From assembly GCA_002432655.1 (NCBI GenBank), contig DJFZ01000055.1:1643-65642 (forward strand): a stretch of DNA of 64,000 nucleotides. The letters are read 5' to 3'. Under the pieces are notes generated by a model. It made no database searches. It saw nothing but the letters and a program-made list of their open reading frames with translations, and was not told the DNA's origin. The DNA is from Thiotrichaceae bacterium UBA5859. Lineage in GTDB: Bacteria > Pseudomonadota > Gammaproteobacteria > UBA5859. Positions 1-48,567 of the stretch are shown in pieces; position 1 is the stretch's first letter, and the number at the start of each line of letters is the position of its first letter. A program made the translations under genes and the position numbers.

Positions 1-1
1 A

Positions 2-702: not shown

Positions 703-726
703 TTGGCTTGTATTGCCGTAGACAAC

Positions 727-7140: not shown

Positions 7141-7230
7141 GGTTTTTGCTGGATAATTAATTTGTCAACTTATAAATAGTCTAGCTTAACTGATTATATC
7201 GACGCAAATCAGCCAATCTTCATTGTTGGT

Positions 7231-8922: not shown

Positions 8923-9025
8923 TAACAGTTCGCTGTTATAAGTCCGTGCCCACTCGAGACAAGGCAGATAAGACCTTAAAGTGCGGTTAATCGTCTATCT
9001 CCAAGTCTAACAACTGGAATGATTG

Positions 9026-9475: not shown

Positions 9476-9477
9476 AA

Positions 9478-11248: not shown

Positions 11249-11334
11249 ACCTTTTTAAGAAATAAGAAACAACACCCAGCGTTGCTACGACATTTTCGCC
11301 ATTCGCATCTTTAGGCTCTTTAAACAACTCTTGC

Positions 11335-27245: not shown

Positions 27246-27542
27246 TTGATTAAAGTGAAACAGAGTGCCATACATGGCAAAGGCTTGTTCGCCTCTCGCC
27301 CCATACGAGAAGGTCAATGGTTAGGAAAATGTATGATCCGACACGGCGTGAAAAAAGTCGGGCCCTACTCTCTTTGGGACGATTCCGGCGAAACATTCGT
27401 CGAAGTGATGTGTCGGCTCAGATTCATTAACCATTCAAAAGAGCCCAACGTGGAATATCAAGATGATTTATCTGTCATTGCGCTTCGGGACATTCGTCCA
27501 GGAGAAGAACTCACCCATGACTACGGGGACGACTGGGAATAA
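27246..27542 (+). CDS. Minimal SET-domain protein (putative lysine methyltransferase), 98 aa.
   Basis: Contains FINHSKEPN (NHSCxPN SET signature with Cys replaced by Lys), the N-terminal GxG region (IHGKGLFA) and the C-terminal ELTHDYG (ELTxDY). Confidence 0.7.
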   Translation: MIKVKQSAIHGKGLFASRPIREGQWLGKCMIRHGVKKVGPYSLWDDSGETFVEVMCRLRFINHSKEPNVEYQDDLSVIALRDIRPGEELTHDYGDDWE

Positions 27543-27931
27543 CGGGCACTCCGCCAAAGGTGTAAATATATTTGACATAATTGGCTGAAAATCTGGCCGC
27601 TTGACTAACAATTAGACATCCAATTCTTCAAATATAATGAAATCACTGATTTTTTGCGATTTCGGCTGACATTTATATCGATTTCATTCAGGAGACTGTC
27701 TATTTTACTGACACTTCTGGAAAAATATGATTATAAAATAACCAAATTAGTTTGAAATTATCGTTTTGAAAGGATTTTCTTACCCTCATGTAAATTTGCC
27801 AATTTGCCTAAATACTAGTTAAGTAATTGATTGCATTGATAATTATAATTGGCATGTGGATTGCAATACAGAAAAACGAAATATCGGTTTAAACAATAAA
27901 AAATCTATTTGTATTTTTCTGGAGGTATTAA

Positions 27932-28543
27932 ATGAAATTCTTGAGAAACACTGTCCTCGCGACTTCACTCACATTCCTAAGCTTTGGTGCCTCTGCGGCA
28001 ATTGTCACCACCGATTTCTTAGATTACATCAGTAAGCCCAATCCGGCAGATTACGGTGATTTCCCCAGCCCGAATCTATGTGAACACGCAATTATCGGCA
28101 CTTGCGACAAGTACGAGTTGATTCAGATAGATTACGATTCTAGCCTATGGGGCAATGATTGGAACAATGTGCTGTCTGCCACCCTAGACGTATGGCTAAG
28201 TAAATTTGACTTCGAATTAGGCGCAGAAATCGCCGTTATCGAAAGCATTGAACTCAGTGCTATCGGTACCTACCTGTGGGCGGAAGTTGATGGATTTGCT
28301 CCTCAAGCATACGGTCCTGTAGATGTATTAAACTTCCTGAAGACCGGTAATGATGACGATGTGTTCACCGCATTATTGAAAGCTGAAAGCAACAACTTTG
28401 AATATCATCAAGCCATTCTCTCTGTGACTTATGAAGATGGCATTAATCCTCCAACTGGCGTACCTGCACCTACCACTCTCCTGTTAATGGGTCTGGGTCT
28501 GTTAGGATTGGGTGCCACCAGACGTCGGGTAGCTGCAGCTTAA
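27932..28543 (+). CDS. PEP-CTERM sorting-domain secreted protein (exosortase substrate).
   Basis: N-terminal signal peptide. The C-terminus reads VPAPTTLLLMGLGLLGLGATRRR, which is a PEP-like motif followed by a hydrophobic helix and an Arg cluster. A 390-bp AT-rich leader lies upstream. Confidence 0.75.
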   Translation: MKFLRNTVLATSLTFLSFGASAAIVTTDFLDYISKPNPADYGDFPSPNLCEHAIIGTCDKYELIQIDYDSSLWGNDWNNVLSATLDVWLSKFDFELGAEIAVIESIELSAIGTYLWAEVDGFAPQAYGPVDVLNFLKTGNDDDVFTALLKAESNNFEYHQAILSVTYEDGINPPTGVPAPTTLLLMGLGLLGLGATRRRVAAA

Positions 28544-32940: not shown

Positions 32941-33013
32941 TGAAAAATCTATAAATAAGAACAATAGCTTTATAATGACTTTCTCGCCAAGTAGAGGAAA
33001 GTAGTGACATCAG

Positions 33014-34204
33014 ATGGGAACAAATCAATCACAATCAATTAACACACTTTGGCAAGATATCTTTCGACTGGCCCAACAGCTCAGTTCGGAAGAATTACTG
33101 ATATACCAAACCGCCAAACGCTACAGCGAAGAAAAGTTAATGCCACGCATTCTCGAAGCCAATCGAGAAGAGCACTTTGATGGAGCGATTATGCAAGAGA
33201 TGGGCGAACTGGGATTACTTGGATTAACGATTAAGGGCTATGGCTGTGCCGGTGCCTCCTATGTGGCTTATGGATTAGCCGCACGGGCGATCGAAGCTGT
33301 CGATAGTAGCTATCGTTCTGCTTTAAGCGTGCAATCTAGTTTGGTTATGTTTCCCATTGAGGCTTTTGGCAGCGAAAAGCAAAAGCGTCAATACTTACCC
33401 AAACTGGCGTCTGGTCATTACATAGGATGTTTTGGACTCACTGAACCCAACAGCGGATCTGATCCCTCAAGCATGCAGACCAAAGCGCAAAAAACCGAAC
33501 AAGGATATCTACTTTCAGGTCAGAAAACGTGGATAACTTCAGCACCACTTGCTGACTTATTTATCATCTGGGCAAAAGATGAGAGAGATCTAATTCGAGG
33601 ATTTTTAATAGAAAAAGACGCACCAGGATTAGTGGTACGCAGGATCAAAAATAAGTTATCCCTCAGAGCATCCTGTACCGGTGAGATTACCTTGGACAAT
33701 GTTTTTGTACCAGAAGAACAGTTACTGGGTAGTGTCACCGGTTTGAAAGGTCCATTTAGTTGTCTGAATCGTGCCCGATATGGCATTGCCTGGGGATCCT
33801 TAGGCGCAGCGGAATTCTGCTGGCAAGCAACTCGAGATTATGTGATGCAGCGCCATCAATTTGGCAAGCCGCTGGCGCATACGCAATTGATACAAAAGAA
33901 ACTCGCAGACATGCAAACTGAAATCACCATTGGATTGCAAGCCGCATTGCGGGTCGGTCGACTGATGGATGAGGATAGTTTTACACCGGAAATGATTTCT
34001 CTAATCAAGAGAAATTCCTGTGGTAAGGCACTGGCCATTGTCAGGGAAGCGAGGGACATGCATGGGGCCAACGGGGTGGCTGACGAGTACCACATCATGA
34101 GGCACATGTCGAACCTAGAGGCGGTCAATACCTATGAAGGAACCCATGACGTTCACGCATTAATTTTAGGTCGCGCGCAGACTGGGCTGAATGCCTTTTT
34201 CTAA
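33014..34204 (+). CDS. Acyl-CoA dehydrogenase, glutaryl-CoA dehydrogenase-like.
   Basis: 396 aa. It has the GCDH-like N-terminal region and the ACAD signature ([19 protein letters not shown]...). The size and motif order fit the GcdH subgroup. Confidence 0.75.
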
Positions 34205-34220
34205 TCTAAATAGAATAAGT

Positions 34221-35981
34221 TTATGCTCCTACAAAAAACCAATACAGAATCGTCAATTGACTTAATAACAGCAACAAACTGATTATTTGCCAAAAACGAA
34301 CTGGATTTCTCTCAATGAGGGGCAATCGATTTGTGTATACATATGACCTGCTTGGATGACGCAAATCATGAAGAAACTCAGACAGAGAATCATACCTATC
34401 TTTTTTCTCTATGCTCAAAGCTTTTTCTAAGGTTTTATCTAACCAGTCGGGTATCAAAGAATTAAATTCAGTACTCCGTTGATACTCCAACTGCTGATAA
34501 TCTTTTAACGTATGACATTGACTCAATTTGCCCTCGTAGGGTTTTCTTCCCGTCAACAACTCAAAAGCGATAACACCAATAGAGAAAAAATCAGACTCGA
34601 TAGTAGCGCCTGCACCCAAAAACACTTCAGGCGCGCTATACTCAGCGGTGCCTAATATTTTGTCTCTTGCAATCGGTGTATTGATTTCATCAATTCCCGC
34701 AATGTGCACTGAACCAAAATCAATGATTTTGATCTGTGCGTGATCATTGATCATTATATTGCCCGGTTTCAAATCTTGATGGATGACTTCTCGGCGATGA
34801 AACGCCCGCACACCTTTGGCAATCTGTTCAACTATGTGAATGATCTGCTGAATGTTGCTGGTCTGATTATGGGTTGCCATCCATTGTTCTAGGGTTTGAC
34901 CTTCTACCAACTCCGTTAAACTGTACATGAACTTTCGTGGTCTAATAGGTGCAACCACCTTCACCACATAGTCACTCTGTATGCGACTACCGATCCATTC
35001 CTCCATCACGAATCTTTCTATATAGGCAAGATCATCTTCATAATTCGCAGAAGGAGTTTTCATCACGTATTTATCACTGGTTGCAACATCCTCAACCACG
35101 TAGAGTTGACTACGTGAACTTGCGTGTATCTCTTGCAATATTCGAAACCCATCCAGTAACAAACCAGTTTTCAAGAAAGGCGGAAAGGGCAAATCTGCCA
35201 GGCGCTTTACCACATCATCAGCGGACTCTACCGGCAGGGAGGTGACTTTGATTATTTGACAACTAAGATTGTCATAACTACCTTGATCATAGGCTTGACG
35301 AACGATCTGTTCACACTTAGTTGTCAAATCGCCCTCTTCTTTGCTGACTATCTGTTGAATTTGTTTGGCATTTAACCAATCATGAACACCATCTGTGCTA
35401 CAAAAGAAGATATCACCCGAGCGCACGTCCAGTGCCCGATAATCCACATCCAACATTAACCCGATCCCCATAGCTCTGGCTAAATACGCTTTGCTACGAC
35501 CGATTTTAGCAACATGATCGTTTGTAAGTTGTTCCCAATCACCATCTCGTAAGCGACAAATTCGTGTATCCCCTACATGGAACAGATGTACTGTGCGTGA
35601 TTTCAATACCAATGAACTAAAGGTAGTGATGTATCCTTTATCCTCTTGAATATGATGTTGGCCTTGAGAATAAAGCCAGCGATTTAAAGCGGCCAATATC
35701 TTGTGCGCAGAGGTTTTTACCGTCCAGGAGTCAGGTGTGGAGTAGTAGTCCGATAAAAAGCTACGTACAGAAATTTCACTGGCTTCTTTGCCCTCCTCGG
35801 CACTGCTCACACCATCCGCGATAGCAACGGCGATACCTTTGGTCGTCAGCAGCGGTTCATCTGGAATCACATAGCCTAAACAATCTTCATTGAGTGCCTT
35901 TTGTCCACGGTCAGAATATTGCCCAACATGAACCTCAAGTTTGGTACTGAGATGCTCAATATCCATTTCATCACTATTCAA
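34221..35981 (-). CDS. Bifunctional PP2C phosphatase / Ser-Thr protein kinase with C-terminal transmembrane anchor.
   Basis: N-terminal PP2C motifs (VAIADGVSSAEEG..., CSTDGVHDW). Central Hanks kinase motifs (HRREVIHQDLKPGNIMIND, DFGSV, GTAEYSAPE). A C-terminal hydrophobic helix. It lies 17 bp downstream of narK on the same strand. Confidence 0.8.
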   Translation of the reverse strand: MNSDEMDIEHLSTKLEVHVGQYSDRGQKALNEDCLGYVIPDEPLLTTKGIAVAIADGVSSAEEGKEASEISVRSFLSDYYSTPDSWTVKTSAHKILAALNRWLYSQGQHHIQEDKGYITTFSSLVLKSRTVHLFHVGDTRICRLRDGDWEQLTNDHVAKIGRSKAYLARAMGIGLMLDVDYRALDVRSGDIFFCSTDGVHDWLNAKQIQQIVSKEEGDLTTKCEQIVRQAYDQGSYDNLSCQIIKVTSLPVESADDVVKRLADLPFPPFLKTGLLLDGFRILQEIHASSRSQLYVVEDVATSDKYVMKTPSANYEDDLAYIERFVMEEWIGSRIQSDYVVKVVAPIRPRKFMYSLTELVEGQTLEQWMATHNQTSNIQQIIHIVEQIAKGVRAFHRREVIHQDLKPGNIMINDHAQIKIIDFGSVHIAGIDEINTPIARDKILGTAEYSAPEVFLGAGATIESDFFSIGVIAFELLTGRKPYEGKLSQCHTLKDYQQLEYQRSTEFNSLIPDWLDKTLEKALSIEKKDRYDSLSEFLHDLRHPSRSYVYTNRLPLIERNPVRFWQIISLLLLLSQLTILYWFFVGA

Positions 35982-35998
35982 TGCGGCGTTCGGAGCAG

Positions 35999-37471
35999 CT
36001 ATCCTACATCGATAAGTTGCACACTACCATCGGGTAATATTTCCGCCATTTTACCCCGCGGCTCTACGAGGAACTGTACCGCAACCAATACCAAGATGGC
36101 TGATCCGCCTATAATCAAGAAAAAGGTACTGTAATCCACGAAGGTTAGTACTGTGAGAAAAATGACTGCACCCACATTTCCGTACGCACCCACCATGCCC
36201 GCGATTTGACCCGTCATACGTCTTTTTACTAGGGGTACTACCGCAAACACCGCACCTTCACCTGCTTGCACGAAAAAAGAACAGCTCATGGTGGCTAATA
36301 CGGCAAGAAAAATAGGCCATTGACTGTTTATTTGACTTAGAATTAGATAGCCAAATGATAGACCTAGTATTAAAAATGACAAACTTTTTCGTCGACCAAA
36401 GGTATCACTGAACCAGCCGCCGCTCGGGCGCGCCACTAAATTCATAAAGGCGAATCCAGAAGCCAACAAGCCAGCTTTTACGGGATTAAGATCGGTATAG
36501 GTTTCAAGAAAGAAGAGCGGCAACATGGATACCACTGCCAATTCGGAGCCAAAAGTTACTAAGTAAGCCAAGTCCAAGATGGCCACCTGCTTGAATTGGT
36601 AACGGTGTATCTCTTCTACAGGGCGTTTAAATACATCTATGTTGACGCGATAAATGTTATACACCTGGAAAATAAACAAAGCCACTAGTGCCAAATAAAT
36701 TGCGTAGCATATCTCAATTGCAAGCAAGCCAATATTTGAAGGAGATAATTTCCAAGTTAACACGGAAAGCGCCAGATACATGGGCAAATTCATAAAAATA
36801 TAGAAATAAAAATCTTTCACGCTCGACACTTCCAACCCACCATGTTTTTTTGGTTTAAAATAGGTTGAGCCTTTTGGCGTGTCTCTAGCCACTAAAAAGT
36901 AGACAATTCCATATACAAAGATAATTGCGGCAGTACAATAAAGTGCGTATCGCCAACCTTCATCCCCACCAAACCAATACGCAATTGCTGGCAAACTCAT
37001 TGCCGCCGCTGCCGAACCAAAGTTTCCCCAACCCCCATAGATACCTTCAGCAATCCCAACTTGTTTGGCGGGAAACCACTCCCCTACCATGCGAATACCA
37101 ATCACAAATCCGGCACCCGACACACCTAATAAAAATCGGAACAACGCAAGTTGATCAAAACTTTGTGCGCTGGCAAAACCCACACAGATAACTGAAGAGA
37201 GGATTAATAAGGTTGAATAGACCCGTCGCGGTCCATAGAGATCTACCATAATGCCCACGACAATACGTGCCGGTATCGTCAAGGCCACATTCAGGATCAT
37301 TAAACCCTTCACTTGTTCGCTACTCAATTGCAGCGACTCCTGGATCAAAACCAACAAGGGCGCATGATTGAACCAAACCACAAAAGAGAGAAAAAACGCA
37401 AACCAAGTGATGTGAAGCGTTCTGATTTTAGGATCGTTTACAGCCAATAGATTTAAATTTTCGGTACTCAT
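35999..37471 (-). CDS. narK: MFS nitrate/nitrite transporter (NarK/NNP family).
   Basis: 12-TM MFS with NNP-type glycine-rich motifs. It is divergent from nirBD-narGHJI. The start was set to ATG at 37471 (AAGGA RBS); the track ORF begins at TTG 37486. Confidence 0.75.
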
Positions 37472-37899
37472 GAATGTTCCTTGCAAGACAGCTTGTCTCC
37501 ACAGAGACGCAAAAGTTGCGCGCCTCAGAGCAATCCATATGCCATGCTGTGTACGTTGAAGGAGCGCAATGCTTTACCAACCAGTTAACAATAACTTAGC
37601 CGTCCTTTAGGATGAGAACTGCATACGCTTTGAACGGCATTGATGATTTTATAGTCAAGACTGTGCACCAGAATGTGGCCTCACGGGAATTGCCTCCCTC
37701 ATTTGGTGCTTAGAAACGCAGGTCAATTTTCCCTCAGGATTGTTTATTGTTTATATTCAATTGCTTATCATATCGATTCTAGTGGCATAGCTATTGCTGA
37801 GAGCCAGCGGAAACGAATGACCGTGGATCGCAAACAACCTGGGTCAACAAAACTGATGAACATCATCTTTTCAATATCAACTGAATAAACGGGGTACAC
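37472..37899. promoter_or_regulatory. Divergent narK / nirB intergenic control region with inverted repeats.
   Basis: 428 bp of non-coding sequence between divergent starts. Inverted repeats AGACA-gct-TGTCT (37486-37498) and TGATG-aa-CATCA (about 37853-37866) are present. No canonical FNR box was found. Confidence 0.35.
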
Positions 37900-40446
37900 A
37901 TGCGTGACGCGCATCGACCGAACATCATCGTCATCGGCAACGGCATGGTCGGCCAAAAATTACTGGAAAATCTAGTAGAAGCTGAAGTACATAAGCAGTT
38001 TAATATTCTGACTTTTTCTGAGGAACCTCGCCCAGCGTACGATAGAGTGGCGCTAAGTTCTTTTTTTTCAGGCAACCGTGCAGAGGATTTGTCTCTCGTA
38101 CCCGAGGGATTCTTTCAACAGAACGGTATCGGCTTACAACTTTCAGAAGCCGTCACTGAAATTGATAGGGCTAAAAAAGAAGTGTGTACCGAGGCCGGGA
38201 ATCGCTATACCTACGAGCTATTGATTCTTGCCACCGGATCTTATCCATTCGTGCCACCGTTACCGGGGCGTGATCGAAAACACTGCTATGTCTATCGCAC
38301 GATCGAAGATCTTGAAGCAATTGCTGCTTGCGGCAAACAGAGTCAGATCGGCGTCGTGGTTGGCGGCGGCCTATTGGGTTTAGAAGCCGCTAAGGCACTA
38401 AAAGACATGGATCTAGAAACCCATGTGGTAGAGTTCGCACCCAGACTCATGGCGGTACAGGTAGATGAAATCGGTGGACAGTTATTACGCAGTAAAATTG
38501 AAGCCTTAGGCGTACAGGTCCACACACAGAAAAACTCAAAAGAAATTGTGGATGGTAATCAACATCTGCATCGCATTAATTTCGTTGACGGCGAACATCT
38601 TGAAACCGACATGATTGTGTTTTCCGCGGGGATCCGACCTCAGGATGCATTGGCGCGCCAATGCGACTTAGCTTTGGGAGAGCGAGGCGGTATCGTCATC
38701 AATGACCATTGCCAAACCTCCGATACCTCTATTTACGCCATTGGTGAATGCGCCTTATGGCAAAATCGTATTTTTGGGCTGGTGGCACCCGGCTATCAAA
38801 TGGCAAAGGTAGCAGCAGAACATATCGCCGGCGGATCGGCTGCTTTTACTGGTGCAGATATGAGTACCAAATTAAAGCTATTGGGCGTGGATGTGGCCAG
38901 CGTTGGCGACGCTCACGCTCGTACGGAAGGTGCGCGTTGTTTCAATTATTTGGATGAAATTAAAGGTGTCTACAAAAAGGTGGTAGTAGACGCTAAACGC
39001 GAACGTCTGCTCGGTGCCGTGCTAGTAGGAGATGCTGAGGAATACGGTACACTCCTACAAATGACACTGAATGACATGCCGTTGCCGGAAAATGTCGATT
39101 CTTTGATTTTGCCACACTATGATGGCAGCGGCATGACAGGGCTGGGCGTCGACGCTCTGCCGGAATCCGCGCAAATATGCTCCTGTAACAACGTCAGTAA
39201 AGGAGATATCTGCCAGGCAGTGGGTTCGGGCGCAACCACACTTGCGGCCATTAAAGAGGCCACCAAAGCCTCTACTACCTGCGGTGGCTGCACCGCTCTA
39301 GTCGGTCAAGTATTAAATGCGGAATTACTCAAATTAGGTGTCGAGGTAAACACAGATATCTGTGAGCACTTCCCTCACACTCGTCAGGAGTTGTATCACA
39401 TAGTACGTATCAACAACATCCAAACATTCGCTGAATTGATAGAAAAACACGGCAAAGGTAGGGGCTGTGATATCTGCAAACCCGCGGTAGCTTCTATTCT
39501 GGCTTCTTGTTGGAATCAATATATTCTAAAACCGGAACATAGCCAGTTACAGGATACAAACGATAGATTCTTAGCCAATATGCAAAAAAACGGTACCTAC
39601 TCGGTAGTGCCTCGTGTGCCAGGTGGCGAAATCACCCCTGACAAACTCATTGCCATTGGTGAAGTGGCAAAAAAATACGACTTGTATACGAAAATAACCG
39701 GTGGTCAAAGAATAGATTTGTTCGGTGCCAGGCTCGAGCAGTTGCCCGCCATATGGGAAGAACTTATCGCCGCTGGATTTGAAAGCGGTCATGCCTATGG
39801 TAAAGCAATGCGTACGGTGAAATCCTGTGTAGGCAGTACTTGGTGTCGGTATGGCGTGCAAGACAGCGTAAGCATGGCGATTCAAATCGAAAATCGTTAT
39901 CGCGGCGTGCGCTCTCCCCATAAGTTAAAGCTAGCCGTATCCGGATGTACTCGAGAATGCGCTGAAGCACAGAGTAAAGATGTCGGTGTGATCGCAACTG
40001 AAAAAGGGTGGAATCTCTATGTCTGCGGCAACGGCGGCATGAAGCCGAGACATGCCGATTTACTGGCATCGGATCTCGACGATCAGACTTTGATCCAGTA
40101 CATCGATCGCTTTTTGATGTTTTATATACGCACGGCCGATCGTCTACAGCGCACTTCCGTCTGGTTAGACAATCTAGAAGGCGGTATTGACTATGTCCGA
40201 CAGGTAGTCTGTGAAGATTCTTTATCCATCGCCACAGAATTAGAAAACGACATGCAGTCTCTAATAGATAGCTATGTGTGTGAATGGCGCTACACTGTCG
40301 AAAATGAAGAAGAACGTAAGCGATTCTCTCATTTTGTAAATAGTTCTGAACCGGATAGCGGTGTTCAATTCGTCAAAGAGCGCGGGCAAATTCGCCCGGC
40401 TTCGACAGATGAGCTCCAGCAAATCCCTACGCAGGCAATAAATTAG
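37900..40446 (+). CDS. nirB: NAD(P)H-dependent nitrite reductase large subunit.
   Basis: 848 aa. N-terminal FAD/NAD Rossmann domain (IIVIGNGMVG), BFD-like [2Fe-2S] region and sirohaem/4Fe-4S Cys cluster (CVGSTWCRYG..., SGCTRECAEA). Confidence 0.9.
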   Translation: MRDAHRPNIIVIGNGMVGQKLLENLVEAEVHKQFNILTFSEEPRPAYDRVALSSFFSGNRAEDLSLVPEGFFQQNGIGLQLSEAVTEIDRAKKEVCTEAGNRYTYELLILATGSYPFVPPLPGRDRKHCYVYRTIEDLEAIAACGKQSQIGVVVGGGLLGLEAAKALKDMDLETHVVEFAPRLMAVQVDEIGGQLLRSKIEALGVQVHTQKNSKEIVDGNQHLHRINFVDGEHLETDMIVFSAGIRPQDALARQCDLALGERGGIVINDHCQTSDTSIYAIGECALWQNRIFGLVAPGYQMAKVAAEHIAGGSAAFTGADMSTKLKLLGVDVASVGDAHARTEGARCFNYLDEIKGVYKKVVVDAKRERLLGAVLVGDAEEYGTLLQMTLNDMPLPENVDSLILPHYDGSGMTGLGVDALPESAQICSCNNVSKGDICQAVGSGATTLAAIKEATKASTTCGGCTALVGQVLNAELLKLGVEVNTDICEHFPHTRQELYHIVRINNIQTFAELIEKHGKGRGCDICKPAVASILASCWNQYILKPEHSQLQDTNDRFLANMQKNGTYSVVPRVPGGEITPDKLIAIGEVAKKYDLYTKITGGQRIDLFGARLEQLPAIWEELIAAGFESGHAYGKAMRTVKSCVGSTWCRYGVQDSVSMAIQIENRYRGVRSPHKLKLAVSGCTRECAEAQSKDVGVIATEKGWNLYVCGNGGMKPRHADLLASDLDDQTLIQYIDRFLMFYIRTADRLQRTSVWLDNLEGGIDYVRQVVCEDSLSIATELENDMQSLIDSYVCEWRYTVENEEERKRFSHFVNSSEPDSGVQFVKERGQIRPASTDELQQIPTQAIN

Positions 40447-40558
40447 AGCCTGTTCCTGTTTGAATATTGCGCTGACTATTTTTGACCAACGGCACTCAAC
40501 AGCATGTATTTTGTTGAATGAATAGTTTGGCGTTAACCAATTTAGGAGCCGTCAACCC

Positions 40559-40900
40559 ATGACATTAAAGTGGACTCAAGTTTGTCTTCTTGAAGAGATT
40601 TTACCGAACACCGGTTGTTGCGCGTTGTATAATCAAATGCAGATCGCAATATTTCGGGTAGATAGTTCGGAACAACTATATGCGGTACAAAATTATGATC
40701 CCCTTGGCGAAGCGAATGTCTTATCGCGAGGCATTGTAGGCGATGTCAATGGAGAATTAGTTGTGGCTTCACCCCTGTATAAACATCACTACTCATTAAA
40801 AACAGGAAAATGTTTGGAAGACGAAACGGTTCAAATTCAAACCTATCCTATCCGAGTGGAAAATGGCCGAGTGGAACTCGGTACGGTTTCTTCACATTAA
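40559..40900 (+). CDS. nirD: Nitrite reductase small subunit (Rieske-like).
   Basis: 113 aa. NirD-like beta-sandwich pattern, directly downstream of nirB. Confidence 0.85.
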   Translation: MTLKWTQVCLLEEILPNTGCCALYNQMQIAIFRVDSSEQLYAVQNYDPLGEANVLSRGIVGDVNGELVVASPLYKHHYSLKTGKCLEDETVQIQTYPIRVENGRVELGTVSSH

Positions 40901-40921
40901 TACACTACTTAGGCAGTTTAA

Positions 40922-43900
40922 ATGAGTCATTTCCTAGATAGATTACAGTTTTTCAAAAAAAAACAAGGACAATTTGCGGACGGCCATGGTGAGATCAGCA
41001 ATGAAGATCGCTCCTGGGAAGATGGTTATCGTCAACGCTGGCAGCACGATAAAATTGTCCGCTCTACCCATGGTGTCAATTGCACCGGATCCTGTAGCTG
41101 GAAAATATACGTTAAAAACGGCCTAGTGACTTGGGAGACTCAACAGACGGATTATCCGCGTACTCGCCCAGACTTACCCAACCACGAACCGAGAGGATGT
41201 CCCCGGGGTGCCAGCTATTCTTGGTACATATATAGTGCTAATCGACTCAAATATCCATTGATTCGCAAAAAGCTGGTGCAATTATGGCGGGCCGCTAGGC
41301 AAACTCACGATCCCGTAGATGCCTGGGAATCTATCGTAGAAGACAGCGAGAAAGCGGCAACCTATAAGCAACAGAGAGGTTTAGGCGGTTTTGTCCGGGC
41401 AACTTGGGATGAAGTGAATGAAATCATCGCCGCTGCCAATACCTACACAATTAAACAGTACGGCCCTGATCGAGTATGTGGTTTTTCACCGATACCTGCC
41501 ATGTCGATGGTGTCCTACGCAGCCGGTACTCGCTATTTGTCCTTAATTGGCGGTACTTGTTTGAGCTTTTATGACTGGTATTGCGATTTACCCCCTAGCT
41601 CTCCTCAAGTGTGGGGAGAACAAACCGATGTGCCCGAATCTGCCGATTGGTATAACTCCAATTTTTTGATCTTATGGGGTTCAAATGTGCCGCAAACTCG
41701 AACACCGGATGCACATTTCTATGCCGAAGTACGTTACAAAGGCACCAAAAGCGTGGTCATTACTCCCGACTTTTCAGAGGCATCAAAGTTTGCCGACCTC
41801 TGGCTTGCGCCTAAACAGGGAACGGATGCTGCGCTCGCAATGGCCTTTGGGCATGTGATCTTAAAAGAGTTTCACGTAGACAATCCGAGTCCATACTTCT
41901 TGAATTATTGTCGTCAATATACGGATATGCCGCTGTTGGTCAAATTGGTGCCTCACGAAGACGGCGCCTTTAAAGCAGATCGTTTTCTTCGCGCTTCAGA
42001 TTTTAACGATGCGTTGGGTGAGGAGAACAACCCCGAGTGGAAAACAGTGGGCTATGACGAACATTCAAAGCAATTTTGTGTGCCCACTGGATCAATAGGT
42101 TTTCGCTGGGGGGAGCAAGGTAAATGGAATATTGAAGAGAAGGACGCCACTGGTCAAGCCACCCAGTTATCTCTGACTCTACTCGACCAACGAGATGAGG
42201 TGGCTTCCGTTGCATTCCCCTACTTTGGCGGAAACGAACGTGAACACTTTCAACATACGGCACACAACGATGTATTGTATCGCAACATTCCTACGAAGAA
42301 AGTGACTTTGTCTACTGGCGAAGAAGTCTTAGTTGCCACTGTCTATGATCTATTATTGGCTCACTACGGTATTGATCGCGGTTTAGGTGGCGACAATGTC
42401 GCGACAAGTTACGACGATGACATTCCTTGCACACCAGCGTGGCAACATAAAATTACTGGCGTTAAATCTCAAGATGTGATCACCGTAGCCCGTCAGTTTG
42501 CCGAGACCGCCCATAAAACTAAAGGGCGCTCCATGATTATCGTGGGTGCGGGGCTGAACCACTGGTATCACAACGATATGAACTATCGCGGCTTAATAAA
42601 TATGCTGTTGATGTGCGGCTGCGTGGGCCAAACAGGCGGTGGCTGGTCGCATTATGTGGGCCAGGAAAAACTTCGACCACAAACCGGATGGACAGCGCTC
42701 GCGTTCGCTCTCGATTGGAATCGTCCACCCAGACAGATGAATGGCACCTCTTTTTTCTATAATCATACCAGTCAATGGCGTTACGAAAAGGTGGGTATTG
42801 AAGAGATCCTTTCGCCGTTAGCGGATAAAGAAAAATATTCCGGTAATGTTTTAGACTATAACATTCGTGCCGAGCGTATGGGTTGGTTACCAAGCGCACC
42901 ACAACTGAATACTAATCCGTTGAATTTGGCTGCTCGAGCGGAAGAGAATAACTTATCAGTAGAAGAGCACCTATGTACCGAACTGAAGTCTGAACAGATC
43001 TCAATGGCTTGTGAAGATCCGGAAGATCCACAAAATTTTCCCCGTAATTTATTTGTCTGGCGTTCTAATATTTTGGGTTCAAGTGGTAAAGGTCACGAAT
43101 ATTTCTTACATCACTTGTTAGGTACCAAACATGGACTGTTGGGCAAAGAACTGGGTGACGACACGAACTTAAAACCAGAAGAGGTAAATTGGCATGAGCA
43201 AGGTGCCACCGGGAAGCTGGATCTGTTGGTCACTTTAGACTTTCGTATGTCTACCACCTGCCTCTATTCAGACATCGTGTTACCCACAGCCAGTTGGTAT
43301 GAAAAGGATGATTTAAACACCTCCGACATGCACCCTTTTATTCATCCATTATCTGCAGCAGTAGATCCAGTATGGGAATCGAGAACTGACTGGGATATCT
43401 ACAAAGGAATAGCGAACAAATTTTCTGAAGTCTGTGTCGGCCACTTAGGCAAAGAAAAAGATGTGGTATTGACCCCGCTGATGCACGATTCCCCTGGTGA
43501 AATTGCCCAGCCCTTTGAGGTAAAAGATTGGAAAAAAGGAGATTGCGATCCCATTCCTGGGAAAACCATGCCGCAGATTAGCGTCATCGAACGCGACTAT
43601 CCAAACACTTATAAAAAGTTCACCTCTCTTGGACCTTTGATGGAGTCCTTAGGCAACGGTGGCAAAGGCATTCATTGGGATACAAAAACGGAAGTAGAAT
43701 TCCTCGGCAAATTGAATCATCCCGTCTTAGATGAGGGTGTTTCTAAAGGACGGCCACAAATTGAAAGCGCCATTGACGCCGCTGAGGTAATCTTGTCTTT
43801 AGCACCAGAAACCAATGGTCAAGTCGCCGTAAAAGCCTGGGAATCCCTAGGTAAAATCACCGGCCGCCAACACACTCATTTGGCAGAACCAAAACAAGAC

Positions 43901-44674
43901 GAAAAAATACGTTTTCGAGACATACAAGCGCAACCGAGAAAAATTATCTCTTCCCCCATCTGGAGTGGGCTCGAAGATGAACATGTCAGTTACAATGCAG
44001 GATACACAAACGTGCATGAGCTGATCCCCTGGCGCACCCTAACCGGAAGGCAACAGTTCTATTTGGATCACCAATGGATATTGGCTTTTGGTGAAGGCTT
44101 TTGCCAATATCGTCCACCAATAGATACCAAGACTGTGAACCCGATATTAAATAAGACGCCTAATGGCAATCGAGAAATTGCGTTAAATTGGATTACGCCT
44201 CACCAAAAATGGGGTATCCACAGCACCTATACTGAAAACCTGCTGATGCTTACTCTTTCAAGAGGTGGTCCCATTATTTGGTTGAGTGAGGTGGATGCAG
44301 CAAAAGTCGACATTGCTGATAATGATTGGGTAGAAGTGTTTAACGTCAACGGGGCGTTAACCGCGCGCGCTGTGGTCAGCCAACGGGTAAATGAAGGCAT
44401 GACGATGATGTATCACGCCCAGGAACGTATCGTCAATAATCCAGGCGCTGAAACCACCGGCACCAGAGGCGGTATTCACAACTCGGTCACTAGAGTGGTA
44501 CTCAAACCCACCCACATGATAGGCGCCTACGCGCAGTTCAGTTATGGTTTTAACTATTACGGTACTGTCGGTTCTAATCGAGATGAATTTGTTATTGTGA
44601 GAAAAATGAATGAAATTGATTGGCTCGACGGTGAAAGTCAACCCTACAAGCAAACAGACGGAGCAGTAGTTTAA
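40922..44674 (+). CDS. narG: Respiratory nitrate reductase alpha subunit.
   Basis: 1250 aa. NarG N-terminal HGVNCTGSCSW Fe-S motif and Mo-bisMGD domains along the full length. It starts 21 bp after the nirD stop. Confidence 0.95.
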   Translation: MSHFLDRLQFFKKKQGQFADGHGEISNEDRSWEDGYRQRWQHDKIVRSTHGVNCTGSCSWKIYVKNGLVTWETQQTDYPRTRPDLPNHEPRGCPRGASYSWYIYSANRLKYPLIRKKLVQLWRAARQTHDPVDAWESIVEDSEKAATYKQQRGLGGFVRATWDEVNEIIAAANTYTIKQYGPDRVCGFSPIPAMSMVSYAAGTRYLSLIGGTCLSFYDWYCDLPPSSPQVWGEQTDVPESADWYNSNFLILWGSNVPQTRTPDAHFYAEVRYKGTKSVVITPDFSEASKFADLWLAPKQGTDAALAMAFGHVILKEFHVDNPSPYFLNYCRQYTDMPLLVKLVPHEDGAFKADRFLRASDFNDALGEENNPEWKTVGYDEHSKQFCVPTGSIGFRWGEQGKWNIEEKDATGQATQLSLTLLDQRDEVASVAFPYFGGNEREHFQHTAHNDVLYRNIPTKKVTLSTGEEVLVATVYDLLLAHYGIDRGLGGDNVATSYDDDIPCTPAWQHKITGVKSQDVITVARQFAETAHKTKGRSMIIVGAGLNHWYHNDMNYRGLINMLLMCGCVGQTGGGWSHYVGQEKLRPQTGWTALAFALDWNRPPRQMNGTSFFYNHTSQWRYEKVGIEEILSPLADKEKYSGNVLDYNIRAERMGWLPSAPQLNTNPLNLAARAEENNLSVEEHLCTELKSEQISMACEDPEDPQNFPRNLFVWRSNILGSSGKGHEYFLHHLLGTKHGLLGKELGDDTNLKPEEVNWHEQGATGKLDLLVTLDFRMSTTCLYSDIVLPTASWYEKDDLNTSDMHPFIHPLSAAVDPVWESRTDWDIYKGIANKFSEVCVGHLGKEKDVVLTPLMHDSPGEIAQPFEVKDWKKGDCDPIPGKTMPQISVIERDYPNTYKKFTSLGPLMESLGNGGKGIHWDTKTEVEFLGKLNHPVLDEGVSKGRPQIESAIDAAEVILSLAPETNGQVAVKAWESLGKITGRQHTHLAEPKQDEKIRFRDIQAQPRKIISSPIWSGLEDEHVSYNAGYTNVHELIPWRTLTGRQQFYLDHQWILAFGEGFCQYRPPIDTKTVNPILNKTPNGNREIALNWITPHQKWGIHSTYTENLLMLTLSRGGPIIWLSEVDAAKVDIADNDWVEVFNVNGALTARAVVSQRVNEGMTMMYHAQERIVNNPGAETTGTRGGIHNSVTRVVLKPTHMIGAYAQFSYGFNYYGTVGSNRDEFVIVRKMNEIDWLDGESQPYKQTDGAVV

Positions 44675-46261
44675 ATGAAAATACGCGCACAGATCGGTAT
44701 GGTATTAAATTTAGACAAATGTATTGGTTGTCATACCTGCTCTATTACCTGTAAGAACGTTTGGACTTCCCGAGAAGGCACCGAATACGCTTGGTTTAAC
44801 AACGTCGAAACTAAACCCGGTGTCGGCTATCCAAAAGAGTGGGAGAATCAGGATCGGTGGAAAGGTGGTTGGAAGCTGAAAGGCAATGGTGAATTGCAAC
44901 CTAAAATTGGTGGCAAATTTAGGGTGCTGGCCAATATTTTTGCCAATCCAGACTTACCAGAAATCGACGACTATTACGAACCATTCGACTTTGATTACCA
45001 ACACCTACATGAAGCGCCAGAGGGCAAACACCAACCCACTGCACGACCTCGCTCACTGATCTCCGGTGAACGCATGGAAAAAATAGAATGGGGGCCAAAC
45101 TGGGAAGAAATTCTGGGTACAGAATTCAAGAAAAGATCAAAAGACAAAAATTTTGACCAAGTACAAAAGGAGATTTACGGTCAATTTGAGAACACATTCA
45201 TGATGTACTTACCGCGTCTATGTGAGCACTGTTTAAATCCTGCTTGTGTAGCCACTTGCCCGTCCGGTGCAATTTACAAACGAGAAGAAGACGGCATTGT
45301 ACTTATCGACCAAGATAAGTGTCGTGGTTGGCGCATGTGCGTGAGTGGATGTCCTTATAAAAAAATCTACTATAACTGGAAATCAGGCAAGTCGGAAAAA
45401 TGTATCTTTTGCTATCCTCGTATAGAGGTGGGACAACCTACTGTTTGCTCCGAAACCTGTGTGGGTCGTATTCGCTATCTCGGTGTGTTGCTCTATGATG
45501 CAGATCGAATTGCGGAAGTGGCTGCCACACCCAACGATCAAGATCTCTATAAAAAACAGCTAGAGATATTCTTAGATCCGAATGATCCAGACATCATTGC
45601 GCAGGCCAGAAAAGATGGCGTTCCAGACAATTGGTTGGAAGCAGCGCAGCGTTCACCAGTTTATATGTTAGCAATGGACTGGCAACTTGCCCTACCCTTA
45701 CACCCGGAATACCGCACCTTGCCCATGGTTTGGTACGTGCCTCCCCTGAGTCCAATTCAGAGTGCTGCGGACAGCGGCGCCATCGGCATGAATGGCATCA
45801 TTCCAGATGTCGACAGTTTGCGGATCCCACTAAAATATCTTGCCAACATGCTCACCGCAGGAGACGAAGCACCAGTGTTACTGGCCCTAAAGAGACTCCT
45901 CGCCATGCGCGCCTATAAGCGAAGCGAAGAAGTGGATGGAGAAGTCAATCATAAAGTTTTGGATGAAGTTAACCTCACTCGCGAACAGGTTGAAAGCATG
46001 TACCGCTATTTGGCTATCGCCAATTATGAAGATAGGTTTGTCATCCCAACCGGCCACCGAGAATATGCAGTGGAGGCGTTCCCAGAAAAATCGGGTTGTG
46101 GCTTCAGCTTCGGTAATGGTTGCTCCGATGGGAACTCAAACCTAGGTCTATTTGGTAATAATCGCGCCAATTCAACCACAGTGAAGTCCTTGTCTGGATC
46201 TGAGTCTGCCACCGAAGGCAATCCATTAGAGATCCGTCAATTATTCTCCTCCCGACGCTAA
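44675..46261 (+). CDS. narH: Respiratory nitrate reductase beta subunit.
   Basis: Four Cys clusters (CIGCHTCSITC, CEHCLNPACVATCPSGA, CRGWRMCVSGCPY, CIFCYPR). Its ATG abuts the narG stop. Confidence 0.95.
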   Translation: MKIRAQIGMVLNLDKCIGCHTCSITCKNVWTSREGTEYAWFNNVETKPGVGYPKEWENQDRWKGGWKLKGNGELQPKIGGKFRVLANIFANPDLPEIDDYYEPFDFDYQHLHEAPEGKHQPTARPRSLISGERMEKIEWGPNWEEILGTEFKKRSKDKNFDQVQKEIYGQFENTFMMYLPRLCEHCLNPACVATCPSGAIYKREEDGIVLIDQDKCRGWRMCVSGCPYKKIYYNWKSGKSEKCIFCYPRIEVGQPTVCSETCVGRIRYLGVLLYDADRIAEVAATPNDQDLYKKQLEIFLDPNDPDIIAQARKDGVPDNWLEAAQRSPVYMLAMDWQLALPLHPEYRTLPMVWYVPPLSPIQSAADSGAIGMNGIIPDVDSLRIPLKYLANMLTAGDEAPVLLALKRLLAMRAYKRSEEVDGEVNHKVLDEVNLTREQVESMYRYLAIANYEDRFVIPTGHREYAVEAFPEKSGCGFSFGNGCSDGNSNLGLFGNNRANSTTVKSLSGSESATEGNPLEIRQLFSSRR

Positions 46262-46271
46262 GAGGTGATGA

Positions 46272-46958
46272 ATGAAAAACCTTAAGCTCATCTCTATTCT
46301 GCTCTCCTATCCAGAGCCTAGTTGGTTCTGTGAATTCGATAACATGATTGAATACATCAATGCAGATCAAGAGTTCACCCCGGAGCAGAAGCAAAAACTA
46401 TTAGAGTTTATTGAGTTACTCTCTTCTGAAGATGTTCTGGACTCTCAGGAGCGTTATGTGGCTACCTTTGATAGAGGCCGCTCTGTATCTATGTTGCTGT
46501 TCGAACATATCCACGGCGAATCAAGAGATAGAGGCCAAGCCATGGTGGATTTGCTGCACACTTACGAATCACGCGGATTTGAACTGAGCGTATCAGAACT
46601 ACCCGATCACTTAACTGTTTTTTTAGAATTTCTATCCCAATGTGCTCCCGAGGAATCTGTTCTATGGCTTTCTGAGGTTTCGAATATATTGGTTCTCATT
46701 TGTTCTAGACTCTACGAACGGCAGAACCCTTATTCAGATCTTTTCAAAATACTCTGCGAGCTCGGCGGAATAACTGAGTTTGATAACCAAACGCTGAACC
46801 AGGTGAAATTGGAGCCAAGGGATGATACACCCGATGCTCTCGACAAGGTTTGGGAAGAAGAGGCGGTACGTTTTGTTGGTAATAATGTCATGGGGGGCGT
46901 ACCCGCTTCTTCTGACCAACAATCTATAAACGACCTAACGCTTAAATCTATATCATAA
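46272..46958 (+). CDS. narJ: Nitrate reductase molybdenum cofactor assembly chaperone.
   Basis: 228-aa acidic protein at the canonical position between narH and narI. TorD/NarJ-like helical pattern. Confidence 0.8.
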   Translation: MKNLKLISILLSYPEPSWFCEFDNMIEYINADQEFTPEQKQKLLEFIELLSSEDVLDSQERYVATFDRGRSVSMLLFEHIHGESRDRGQAMVDLLHTYESRGFELSVSELPDHLTVFLEFLSQCAPEESVLWLSEVSNILVLICSRLYERQNPYSDLFKILCELGGITEFDNQTLNQVKLEPRDDTPDALDKVWEEEAVRFVGNNVMGGVPASSDQQSINDLTLKSIS

Positions 46959-46970
46959 AGGAGCCAAACC

Positions 46971-47663
46971 ATGGCATGGTTGAATCATTTCATTCACGAA
47001 ATTCTTTTTGGGCTTTTCCCTTATTTCGCTCTGACGGTTATGGTACTAGGTTCAATCATAAGATTTGACCGCGAACAATATACTTGGCGAAGCGGATCCA
47101 GTCAGATGTTGCGCAATAAATCATTTAGGTTGGCAAGTAACCTATTTCATTTCGGCATCTTATTTCTCATGCTAGGTCATTTTGTCGGACTCTTAACGCC
47201 ACCCAAAATCTATCATGCATTTGGATTATCGACAGCGGACAAACAGATCCTTGCTATGAGCGCTGGAGGGGCTGCTGGCATTGTTTGTTTTGTCGGACTA
47301 ACCATGTTGTTACATAGACGGCTCTACGATCCCAGGATTAGAGCAACGAGTTCATTTAGCGATATTTTGATTCTTCTACTCATTTATGCGCAGTTGATCT
47401 TGGGTCTTTTTTCAATTGTTGTTTCCGCGTTTCATATGGATGGTACACAGATGGTATTGCTGGCAGAGTGGGCCCAACGAATTGTCAGTTTCAGATCTGA
47501 TGCCGCCGATCAACTCCTACACGTGAATTGGGTATATAAGTTACATGTGTTTCTCGGACTCATTATCATCTTAGTATTTCCTTTCACACGATTGATACAC
47601 ATCATCAGTGCCCCGATATGGTATCTAGGCAGAAGTTATCAGATTGTGAGAACCAGAAGGTAA
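46971..47663 (+). CDS. narI: Respiratory nitrate reductase gamma subunit (dihaem cytochrome b).
   Basis: 230 aa with five TM helices and conserved haem-ligand His positions. Confidence 0.85.
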   Translation: MAWLNHFIHEILFGLFPYFALTVMVLGSIIRFDREQYTWRSGSSQMLRNKSFRLASNLFHFGILFLMLGHFVGLLTPPKIYHAFGLSTADKQILAMSAGGAAGIVCFVGLTMLLHRRLYDPRIRATSSFSDILILLLIYAQLILGLFSIVVSAFHMDGTQMVLLAEWAQRIVSFRSDAADQLLHVNWVYKLHVFLGLIIILVFPFTRLIHIISAPIWYLGRSYQIVRTRR

Positions 47664-47667
47664 GCAT

Positions 47668-48507
47668 ATGTCCAATCCCATCGAAATCAAAATATCAGAG
47701 CCACTACATACCCAGAGCCCAGCTGAATCTGTTGATACTGTTGTTAAAGTCAATGGGCAAACCATCAGCGAAGAGACCATTGCTCGGGAAATGCAATATC
47801 ACCCAGCAGACAATCAAGAGCAAGCATATTTTCTGGCCACCCAAGCGTTGGTGATCCAAGAGGTTCTCTGTCAACGTGCTGACTCTCTATTCGTCAATCA
47901 AAAAACCAAGTTAACTTTAAATACAGACAAAAAAATCGAAGCTGTGCTAGAAGAGGAAGTAGCAGTACCTACCCCTTCTGAGCCAGAACTCAGGCGGTAT
48001 TATTCTCAGAATGAAGACAAATTTAGAACCGGCGATTTGTTGGAAGTCAGCCATATCTTGTTGGCAGCCGCACCAGAAGATGCCGTCATGCGACAACAAC
48101 TGAAAGAAAAGGCGTATCTACTCATTGAACAATTAGTTAAACAACCCAAGAAATTTTCTAAATTGGCGAAAACCTATTCCGCCTGCCCTTCCAACAATAC
48201 GGGCGGCAGTCTTGGACAAATTAGCAAAGGTCAAACCGTTGTGGAATTTGAAAAAGCCTTACAAACCTTGCCTGAAGGACTTTCACCGCACCCAATTGAA
48301 TCTCGTTACGGCTTTCATATAATTCGTATAGACAGAAGAGTAGAAGGTAAATTGTTGCCATTTGAGTTGGCGCGAGATCGCATACATCAATACATGTTTG
48401 AACAGGTACAAAGACGCGCCATCAGTCAATACATTTCTCTATTATTAGCAGAGGCAGAAATTGAAGGCTTTGACATCAATACGCCTTCTAGTCCTCTGGT
48501 CCAGTAG
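47668..48507 (+). CDS. PpiC/parvulin-type peptidyl-prolyl cis-trans isomerase linked to the nar operon.
   Basis: C-terminal parvulin domain (SHILLAAAPED..., GFHIIRIDRR). It starts 4 bp after narI. A comparable ppiC-type gene follows narI in Pseudomonas. Confidence 0.75.
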   Translation: MSNPIEIKISEPLHTQSPAESVDTVVKVNGQTISEETIAREMQYHPADNQEQAYFLATQALVIQEVLCQRADSLFVNQKTKLTLNTDKKIEAVLEEEVAVPTPSEPELRRYYSQNEDKFRTGDLLEVSHILLAAAPEDAVMRQQLKEKAYLLIEQLVKQPKKFSKLAKTYSACPSNNTGGSLGQISKGQTVVEFEKALQTLPEGLSPHPIESRYGFHIIRIDRRVEGKLLPFELARDRIHQYMFEQVQRRAISQYISLLLAEAEIEGFDINTPSSPLVQ

Positions 48508-48509
48508 AA

Positions 48510-48541
48510 AAAAATAGCCACTCAACTAGAGTGGCTATCCG
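48510..48541 (-). terminator. Hairpin terminator, minus-strand oriented and possibly bidirectional. It closes both the nar operon and the convergent 484-aa gene.
   Basis: tagccactc-aacta-gagtggcta stem preceded on the plus strand by A7, which gives a T-run on the minus strand. Confidence 0.45.
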
Positions 48542-48567
48542 ATGGCCAGATGATGCTATCAATCTCT

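Follow-up and report, generated by a model that had tools for sequence, protein, structure and literature searches.

Why should a gene for a nitrate transporter be followed directly by one for a kinase and a phosphatase fused in a single protein? This arrangement is found in a stretch of 64,000 nt from Thiotrichaceae bacterium UBA5859 (contig DJFZ01000055.1 of assembly GCA_002432655.1), referred to here as the window, where a narK gene and a gene for a fused PP2C phosphatase and Hanks-type Ser/Thr kinase occupy positions 34221–37486, both on the minus strand. An earlier note on this DNA had pointed out the two genes and proposed that they provide eukaryote-like phospho-regulation of nitrate uptake or respiration. 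The two open reading frames (ORFs) lie on the same strand where that note had placed them. Its 17-bp gap and 586-aa protein hold for the longest ORFs, which have TTG starts and extend over 35999–37486 (−) for narK and 34221–35981 (−) for the kinase/phosphatase gene; with independent gene callers narK starts at an ATG at 37471 (490 aa) and the kinase/phosphatase at an ATG at 35966 (581 aa), and the spacer becomes 32 bp. A database protein identical to the kinase/phosphatase (P0001, 581 aa) has the latter start, and residue numbers for this protein refer to the 581-aa form.

The pairing is conserved in a wide range of bacteria, and the kinases group according to the transporter beside which they are encoded. 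Functional coupling of the kinase/phosphatase to nitrate/nitrite transport is well supported. Our preferred explanation, to which we give a probability of about 0.45, is that the protein is a dedicated, cytoplasm-facing phospho-switch on its cognate transporter, under NtrC/sigma-54 rather than FNR/NarXL control.

Linkage of the kinase gene to transporter genes

One genome per GTDB species was scanned for relatives of the kinase/phosphatase, and at least 578 loci encode one; the best 80 were taken, and these contain 84 kinase genes. The loci are gammaproteobacterial, from Cellvibrionales-type families, Oceanospirillales-type genera, Moritella, Colwellia, Methylophaga, Methylococcales, relatives of Beggiatoa, and Chromatiales, and they also include metagenome-assembled genomes (MAGs) labelled Betaproteobacteria, Verrucomicrobiota and Pontiella. 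Of the 84 kinase genes, 65 have a NarK gene as their upstream neighbour on the same strand, five a gene for a formate/nitrite transporter (FNT), two nirD and nine something else; the other three lie at contig ends. Among the 81 informative homologues, 65 adjoin narK and 72 adjoin a gene for a nitrate/nitrite transporter or a nitrite reductase. The gap between narK and the kinase gene has a median of 84 bp in these relatives. The earlier note had made its proposal depend on conservation of the linkage in related genomes, and the linkage extends over many orders. A location beside ABC-type nitrate transporters was considered for the kinase genes that have no upstream narK, and was ruled out, as the neighbours are FNT genes or nirD, or the kinase gene is an orphan. 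In Moritella the kinase gene follows nirBD and not a transporter gene.

Pairs of FNT and kinase genes are present on plasmids of Azospirillum, Methylobacterium, Cupriavidus, a Comamonadaceae strain, Psychrobacter, Acinetobacter and Pseudoalteromonas. The Azospirillum, Methylobacterium and Cupriavidus pairs stand alone with no other nitrogen gene nearby, the Comamonadaceae plasmid has the order nirBD-FNT-kinase, and in Psychrobacter and Acinetobacter a cyanase gene (cynS) is next door. A Methylocystis plasmid carries a nitrate reductase gene, then a gene for an MFS transporter, then the kinase gene. More distant members (27–28% identical) are encoded on a plasmid of Burkholderia sp. PAMC 26561 (L097), after a glutamate-synthase-like gene and a gene for an APC-family amino-acid permease, and on a megaplasmid of Acidithiobacillus caldus (L098), downstream of a glutamate-synthase-like gene in a region broken by insertion sequence (IS) elements. 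These last two arrangements suggest that the reach of the family extends to transporters for other nitrogen compounds.

Several genomes carry more than one copy of the kinase gene. Loci L021 and L024 each have two divergently oriented narK-kinase pairs, and one pair corresponds across the two loci with 65% identity in the kinase and 70% in NarK, compared with 44–52% for both proteins between paralogues of the same genome; from this matching relatedness the module appears to have been duplicated as a whole long ago. L046 has both an FNT-kinase and a NarK-kinase pair, and in L076 an FNT-kinase pair is accompanied by another kinase gene, which lies directly upstream of nirBD. The midpoint root of the kinase tree fell inside the FNT-linked group, and a nearest-neighbour analysis was used in place of a test of monophyly. 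For all 12 of the 12 FNT-linked kinases the three nearest neighbours are also FNT-linked, across alpha-, beta- and gammaproteobacterial hosts. A gammaproteobacterial FNT-linked kinase is 53–59% identical to the alpha- and betaproteobacterial FNT-linked kinases but 47% identical to the NarK-linked paralogue of its own genome. The kinases thus sort by partner transporter and not by host, and this is the strongest available argument for the transporter as the direct functional partner.

The kinase-linked FNTs are themselves a tight, highly conserved subfamily, 26–29% identical to Escherichia coli NirC, and a kinase gene follows in every case examined (L045, L046, L064, L066 and L076, and plasmid loci L081, L083 and L091–L095). 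The FNT-kinase pair is often an isolated two-gene module, and occurs on small mobilizable plasmids too. We did not meet the sorting of kinases by partner (NarK, FNT or APC) in the searchable literature, although it may be known elsewhere.

Plasmid pPN3F2_1 of Shewanella aestuarii (L082 and L084) differs in having the kinase gene beside fragmented MFS genes and IS elements, with an intact NarK of the kinase-linked type (59.7% identical, motifs retained) encoded 25 kb off, next to a transposase gene. This looks like a module split by transposition.

Domain architecture, topology and transcription

The N-terminal half of the window protein matches Pfam PP2C_2 (residues 49–204, 58.2 bits, cut-off 24) and the C-terminal half matches Pfam Pkinase (residues 291–531, 133 bits, 1.6e-38, cut-off 31.7). 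The phosphatase motifs are NED (26–28), ADGVS (50–54), TDGVHD (191–196) and DNLS (232–235), and those of the kinase are the lysine K303, HQDLKPGN (396–403), DFG (416–418) and SAPE (444–447). For conservation we aligned 96 family members with identities down to 27%: the window protein, 11 copies encoded on plasmids and the 84 proteins of the 80 species-level genomes. The PP2C residues D28, D51, G52, D192, G193 and D232 are invariant, as are K303, E322, H396, D398, N403, P446 and R524 of the kinase (96/96), and D416 is found in 95 of 96, with one gap. The Arg of the HRD motif is replaced by Gln in 85 of 96 members, which are thus non-RD kinases (HQD). The glycine-rich loop GxGxxG of subdomain I is absent; the β1-β2 turn reads IHASSRSQLY, with zero glycines, and the family-wide pattern is H-A-S-x-R-S. 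The kinase had been described in the earlier note as complete, and this is correct for HQDLKPGN, DFG and APE but not for the glycine-rich loop. With that loop as the one caveat for the kinase, both halves appear, from the alignment, to be under purifying selection for catalysis.

An AlphaFold2 model of the protein has a mean pLDDT of 86.5 and a pTM of 0.65. Foldseek comparison places the C-terminal half close to PknB (target TM-score up to 0.86–0.87) and the N-terminal half close to PppA, tPphA, the Streptococcus agalactiae phosphatase (STP) and PstP (0.83–0.86); no solved chain found by Foldseek spans both halves, the query TM-score being at most 0.41. A conserved Thr-Pro lies in the activation loop, whose residues 427–433 are predicted to be flexible (pLDDT below 50).

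Residues 558–581 form the sole hydrophobic segment of the protein, with 2 residues past its best 19-residue stretch, and the model has a long terminal helix at 555–580. The N-terminal PP2C domain reported previously is present, as is the C-terminal hydrophobic helix, which had been read as transmembrane. Across the 96 members a median of 2 residues follows the C-terminal helix, and only two members have another hydrophobic window. A helix at the extreme C-terminus is the signature of a tail anchor, by which the protein is predicted to insert into the membrane; because the helix lies at the very end of the chain, both catalytic domains would be cytoplasmic and no room would be left for an external sensor. 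No extracytoplasmic or recognisable ligand-binding domain was found in the kinase/phosphatase.

The spacer between narK and the kinase gene contains no sigma-70-like promoter and no terminator, and the regional counts equal those of shuffled controls. A separate promoter for the kinase gene was named previously as an outcome that would count against the proposal; the 32-bp gap has no promoter-like signal. The sigma-54-type pattern TGGCAY-N5-TTGCW matches three times in the 64-kb window, compared with 0.18 expected, and two of these matches lie inside the 413-bp spacer between narK and nirB, one facing each operon. Both boxes are perfectly conserved islands in comparison with a sister species (84% kinase identity), in a spacer that has otherwise diverged. 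In about 21 of 62 related loci a sigma-54 motif is found 49–104 bp upstream of narK, and in none is one found upstream of the kinase gene. With a narK-kinase spacer that has neither promoter nor terminator, and sigma-54 boxes ahead of narK and never ahead of the kinase gene, narK and the kinase gene most likely form one transcript from a nitrogen-regulated sigma-54 promoter. Pseudomonas aeruginosa has a probable Ser/Thr kinase gene, PA1782, directly downstream of the nitrate transporter gene nasA (PA1783) and ahead of nirB (PA1781). Transcripts of PA1783, PA1782 and PA1781 are down 162-, 96- and 50-fold in an ntrB mutant and 651-, 151- and 137-fold in an ntrC mutant (PMC7214821 supplement), and the three genes rise together in biofilms (PMC6954232). 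The co-regulation of PA1782 agrees with a single nitrogen-regulated transcript.

Matches to the full NtrC palindrome with 3 mismatches number 19, compared with 22.7 expected, and are not informative alone; the half-sites GCACCAA and TGGTGC, whose conservation extends to the sister species, are tentative NtrC sites. The FNR-box pattern has zero sites in the narK-nirB spacer, and homologues of NasT, NasS, NasR and CobA were found nowhere in the window. The earlier contention that control here is not of the classical NarXL/FNR type agrees with the sigma-54 boxes and with a spacer that has no FNR box, but it needs qualification in that the module adds to transcriptional control and that a copy elsewhere (L080) lies downstream of narXL.

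The emphasis placed previously on respiration is probably misplaced. The pair is divergent from the nir and nar genes, as had been described, with nirB, nirD and narGHJI on the plus strand; among the 80 related loci, however, narG is within 10 kb in only one, where it is arranged differently, and many relatives have a nasC-type assimilatory reductase or no reductase. In the window narGHJI occupies the position held by nasC in relatives, and a search for a NasC-type reductase gave only a 25% match inside narG. The layout of the sister species (L090) is nirB-nirD-narG-narH as far as its sequence reaches, the same as in the window. The window does not have the composition of a classical nas cluster, with a NasA/NasC-type reductase, NasST or NasR, and cobA. 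From the sigma-54 promoters, nirBD and the nasC-type reductases of relatives, we consider the context of the module to be mainly assimilatory and nitrogen-controlled, and not respiratory. In L080 (positions 1–11719) the narK-kinase pair is directly downstream of narX-narL and divergent from narK1-narK2-narG, and the window NarK has its closest relative (72%) in the NarK of this pair; the module can sit inside a classical respiratory nar locus too.

We also observed that the nirBD-narGHJI-PpiC block (37783–48507, +) lies in its entirety behind a sigma-54 box. The membrane-bound Nar enzyme may here serve nitrogen-regulated nitrate assimilation or ammonification.

The proposed switch and its rivals

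We propose that narK and the kinase gene are a two-gene module that would be co-transcribed from a nitrogen-regulated promoter of the sigma-54/NtrC type. A C-terminal tail anchor would keep the kinase/phosphatase, which has no external sensor, on the cytoplasmic side of the inner membrane, and the single chain would be active both as a Ser/Thr kinase and as a PP2C phosphatase. It would set the phosphorylation of cytoplasmic Ser/Thr residues on the cognate transporter, this being NarK in the window and FNT or another permease in paralogous modules, and through it an intracellular nitrogen or nitrite signal could turn nitrate/nitrite flux up or down within seconds. More tentatively, tail-anchored fusions of this kind could be general gatekeepers of transporters for nitrogen compounds (NarK-type MFS, FNT and APC), each paralogue phosphorylating and dephosphorylating its own transporter.

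Candidate acceptor sites can be named. The central loop of 63 kinase-linked NarKs has the motif D-T-P-x-G-S-T-Y-F-K-P, in which T198 and T203 are 100% conserved and S202 94%, and the C-terminal tail has L-P-D-G-[ST]-V, in which residue 483 is Ser or Thr in 95%. In the unlinked respiratory NarK1 (43% identical) and a NasTS-type NasA (28.5%) these motifs are altered or absent. The kinase-linked FNTs have an invariant Thr in a tail motif, [KR]-T-x-P. We regard the NarK loop and tail motifs as weak evidence for phospho-acceptor sites.

Several observations weigh against a phospho-switch on the transporter. The two unlinked controls are also the more distant proteins, and the correlation of NarK motifs with linkage is not independent of phylogeny (n=2). 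Nor are the 80 loci phylogenetically independent, all of them being the nearest relatives of a single query. Nine of the 84 homologues adjoin no transporter gene, and these orphans sit among unrelated genes. The family-wide loss of the glycine-rich ATP-binding loop means that kinase activity is not guaranteed, and phosphorylation data for any family member were not found in the searchable literature.

The main rival, which we consider less likely, reverses the roles: the transporter would be the sensor, and the kinase, in contact with NarK or FNT in the membrane, would read its state of transport and phosphorylate another target, such as nitrite or nitrate reductase, a regulator (NasT or NtrC) or a PII protein. 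A protein that has no extracytoplasmic or ligand-binding domain and ends about 2 residues past its membrane helix is compatible with this, and adjacency to three unrelated transporter families (MFS, FNT and APC) would fit a generic reading of flux; the Moritella kinase gene, which follows nirBD, fits as well. Such a kinase would nevertheless require something to act on, and neither a nitrogen enzyme nor a regulator is encoded near the FNT-kinase pairs of Azospirillum, Methylobacterium and Cupriavidus; nor does any candidate downstream target show conserved linkage. The tight clustering of the kinases by partner type is explained by either model, and the present data fit both. A different division of labour, in which the PP2C domain mainly resets autophosphorylation of the kinase as an internal off-timer and is not an antagonist on a shared substrate, seems to us quite improbable. 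The separately encoded phosphatases PstP and PhpP dephosphorylate their partner kinases PknB and StkP, and the conserved Thr-Pro in the flexible activation loop could be a target of this sort; however, 85 of 96 members are non-RD, and non-RD kinases usually need no activation-loop phosphorylation. An off-timer is in any case compatible with a switch on the transporter and not exclusive of it.

Control of respiratory nitrate reduction by the module, through the Nar complex, comes to mind with narGHJI in the divergent operon, where it follows nirBD in the window and in the sister species; the L080 copy, with narXL-narK-kinase beside narK1K2-narG, and the Shewanella plasmid copy near narL and narG also point that way. 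We nonetheless judge it very unlikely, as narG is near the module in just the one locus of 80, relatives often have a nasC-type reductase or none, and the intergenic region has sigma-54-type promoters and no FNR box that we could find. Incidental adjacency, with some unrelated cellular role for the protein, could draw on the nine of 84 homologues not beside a transporter gene, but the linkage in 72 of 81 informative homologues, from several proteobacterial classes and the Verrucomicrobiota and Pontiella MAGs, and the duplication of the whole module and its movement onto plasmids as a pair make this barely credible; incidental adjacency is effectively refuted by the conservation data.

If the transporter is the substrate, many marine, soil and pathogenic Proteobacteria would control nitrate/nitrite flux post-translationally by means of an operon-encoded eukaryote-like kinase/phosphatase. 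In a 2021 review of how bacterial nitrate respiration is controlled at the transcriptional and post-transcriptional levels (PMC8139620) the word 'threonine' does not occur, which suggests that a layer of Ser/Thr phosphorylation is missing from current models of nitrate respiration. Should the fusions be general gatekeepers, they would be a direct bacterial counterpart of the phospho-switching of plant NRT transporters, and a candidate mechanism for the fast inhibition of nitrate uptake by ammonium in heterotrophic Proteobacteria. To our knowledge this inhibition remains unexplained. Being small and conserved, and probably found in genetically tractable species such as Pseudomonas, the module lends itself to direct tests. 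The way in which its kinases sort by partner also makes it a clean system in which to study how substrate specificity arises in Hanks-type kinases.

Related systems and the wider locus

The window protein is 50–56% identical, over 96–100% of its length, to more than 100 database proteins, several of which are named for the NCBI family 'bifunctional protein-serine/threonine kinase/phosphatase' of Proteobacteria; named members in Alkalimarinus, Cellvibrio, Litoribrevibacter and Parahaliea have 50–53% identity over 96–100% of the length. It shares with that family the layout of PP2C, kinase and C-terminal helix and the position downstream of a transporter gene. It differs in being a deep branch, with 84% identity to a single protein, that of the sister species, and no more than 56% to any other, and in its unusual operon partners, nirBD joined to narGHJI. 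The closest kinase among the 80 best GTDB species loci has 53% identity, and the sister species at 84% came only from a Logan assembly.

Both the adjacency and the idea of a phospho-controlled transporter have already appeared for Pseudomonas sp. UW4, in which 'ppkB' lies immediately downstream of nasA and phosphorylation of the transporter was proposed in 2013 by analogy with plants and yeast (PMC3596284). PA1782, in the same position in P. aeruginosa, is listed as predicted and as uncharacterised or unconfirmed in papers of 2021 and 2024 (PMC11197903, PMC8560001), and presumably encodes a PP2C-kinase fusion of the same family. From locus tags and annotation only, the Pseudomonas order is apparently nasA-PA1782-nirBD-nitrate reductase-cobA with nasST nearby, whereas in the window the narK-kinase pair is divergent from nirBD-narGHJI and there is no nasST. 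A functional study of any family member was not found in the searchable literature. We therefore regard the window protein as a new, fairly divergent member of a recognised family, and the locus as one more example, in an unusual nirBD-narGHJI setting, of an adjacency already noted in 2013 (PMC3596284).

The best sequence and fold matches to the two halves are PknB and PstP of Mycobacterium and StkP and PhpP of Streptococcus, in which a kinase and an opposing PP2C phosphatase are also encoded together. In those systems they are two separate proteins, and each kinase crosses the membrane in mid-chain and ends in PASTA sensor domains on the outside; the window protein would have both activities in one chain, with its helix at the extreme C-terminus and nothing outside the cell. 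It scores 161.7 bits against the PASTA kinase family (PknB/Stk1, NF033483; cut-off 450), in the kinase domain only, and 102.7 bits against the Stp1/IreP PP2C phosphatases (NF033484; cut-off 230), and so falls far below both cut-offs.

Phospho-controlled nitrate transporters are familiar from eukaryotes, with CIPK kinases and PP2C phosphatases acting on NRT1.1 and NRT2.1 of plants, and Npr1 on Ynt1 of yeast. A kinase and transporter may also sense together, as BceS reads BceAB and DcuS reads DctA, and opposing activities in one protein make output robust to enzyme level. The likeness of the window system to plant and yeast transporters is one of functional analogy only, in that a Ser/Thr kinase and a PP2C phosphatase would together govern the activity of a nitrate transporter (an analogy drawn in PMC3596284); there is no sign of common descent, the window enzymes are fused, tail-anchored and encoded in the transporter operon, and phosphorylation of their transporter is only proposed. 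BceAB-BceS and DctA-DcuS resemble it in having a sensor-less kinase encoded beside a transporter, and NtrB, GlnD, GlnE and AceK in having opposing activities in one protein. All of these are histidine kinases, nucleotidyl-transferases or proteins with a single shared active site, whereas the window protein has two separate eukaryote-like catalytic domains.

The coordinates of the locus are given in Table 1.

Table 1. Features of the narK-kinase locus and its divergent operon, in window coordinates.
Feature	Position	Strand	Basis
narK, NarK/NNP-family nitrate/nitrite MFS transporter, 490 aa	35999..37471	−	TIGR00886, Pfam MFS_1, gene callers
Bifunctional PP2C phosphatase/Hanks-type Ser/Thr kinase with predicted C-terminal tail anchor, 581 aa	34221..35966	−	Pfam PP2C_2 and Pkinase
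PP2C (PPM) phosphatase domain, about residues 10–245	35232..35939	−	Pfam PP2C_2, invariant residues, fold match
Hanks-type kinase domain, about residues 270–536	34359..35159	−	Pfam Pkinase, catalytic residues, fold match
C-terminal hydrophobic helix, residues 558–581, predicted tail anchor	34224..34295	−	Hydrophobicity, AlphaFold2 model
narK-kinase intergenic spacer, 32 bp	35967..35998	−	No promoter-like or terminator-like site; alignable with sister species
Sigma-54-type promoter box TGGCATATGGATTGCT upstream of narK	37529..37544	−	Pattern match, sister-species conservation
Sigma-54-type promoter box TGGCATAGCTATTGCT upstream of nirB	37783..37798	+	Pattern match, sister-species conservation
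nirB and nirD, NADH nitrite reductase, divergent from narK	37900..40900	+	NF011565, NF007066
Respiratory-type nitrate reductase genes narG, narH, narJ and narI, and PpiC-type prolyl isomerase gene	40922..48507	+	TIGR01580 etc.
NarK central cytoplasmic-loop motif, residues 197–209, candidate phospho-acceptor site	36845..36883	−	Conservation
NarK C-terminal tail motif LPDGSV, residues 479–484, candidate phospho-acceptor site	36020..36037	−	Conservation

The narK product scores 338.5 bits against TIGR00886 (the NarK family of NCBIfam; cut-off 311.7) and also matches Pfam MFS_1. It contains GGWGNFGS at 146–153 and GAYGNVGA at 428–435, which we take to be the two NNP signature motifs. A search of the Protein Data Bank (PDB) with its sequence gave no solved relative at E ≤ 0.001, and its function as a nitrate/nitrite transporter is predicted from family membership and the nirBD/narGHJI context. 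In the divergent operon nirB (37900–40446, +) scores 1361.8 bits against NF011565 and nirD (40559–40900, +) 135.6 bits against NF007066; narGHJI (40922–47663, +) starts 21 bp past nirD, with narG at 2282 bits (TIGR01580) and narH, narJ and narI above cut-off. An Rfam scan of 33000–49000 at E ≤ 1 gave zero matches, and hence no known leader or riboswitch in that region. The identical kinase protein, with about 20 kb of flanking sequence in the same gene order, is present on a 181,739-bp metagenome contig from beach sand (ENA ERZ937833, SRR1570769, PRJNA260285).

Two further observations concern genes upstream of this region in window coordinates. The third sigma-54-type box of the window, TGGCATGTGGATTGCA at 27850–27865 (+), lies 67 bp upstream of a 203-aa ORF (27932–28543, +) that has no family match at an E-value cut-off of 1e-10 and may be another nitrogen-regulated gene. 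Public gene calls, with coordinates converted, also place at about 27246–27542 (+) a protein of 98 aa that has a SET domain (lysine methyltransferase), a domain uncommon among bacteria.

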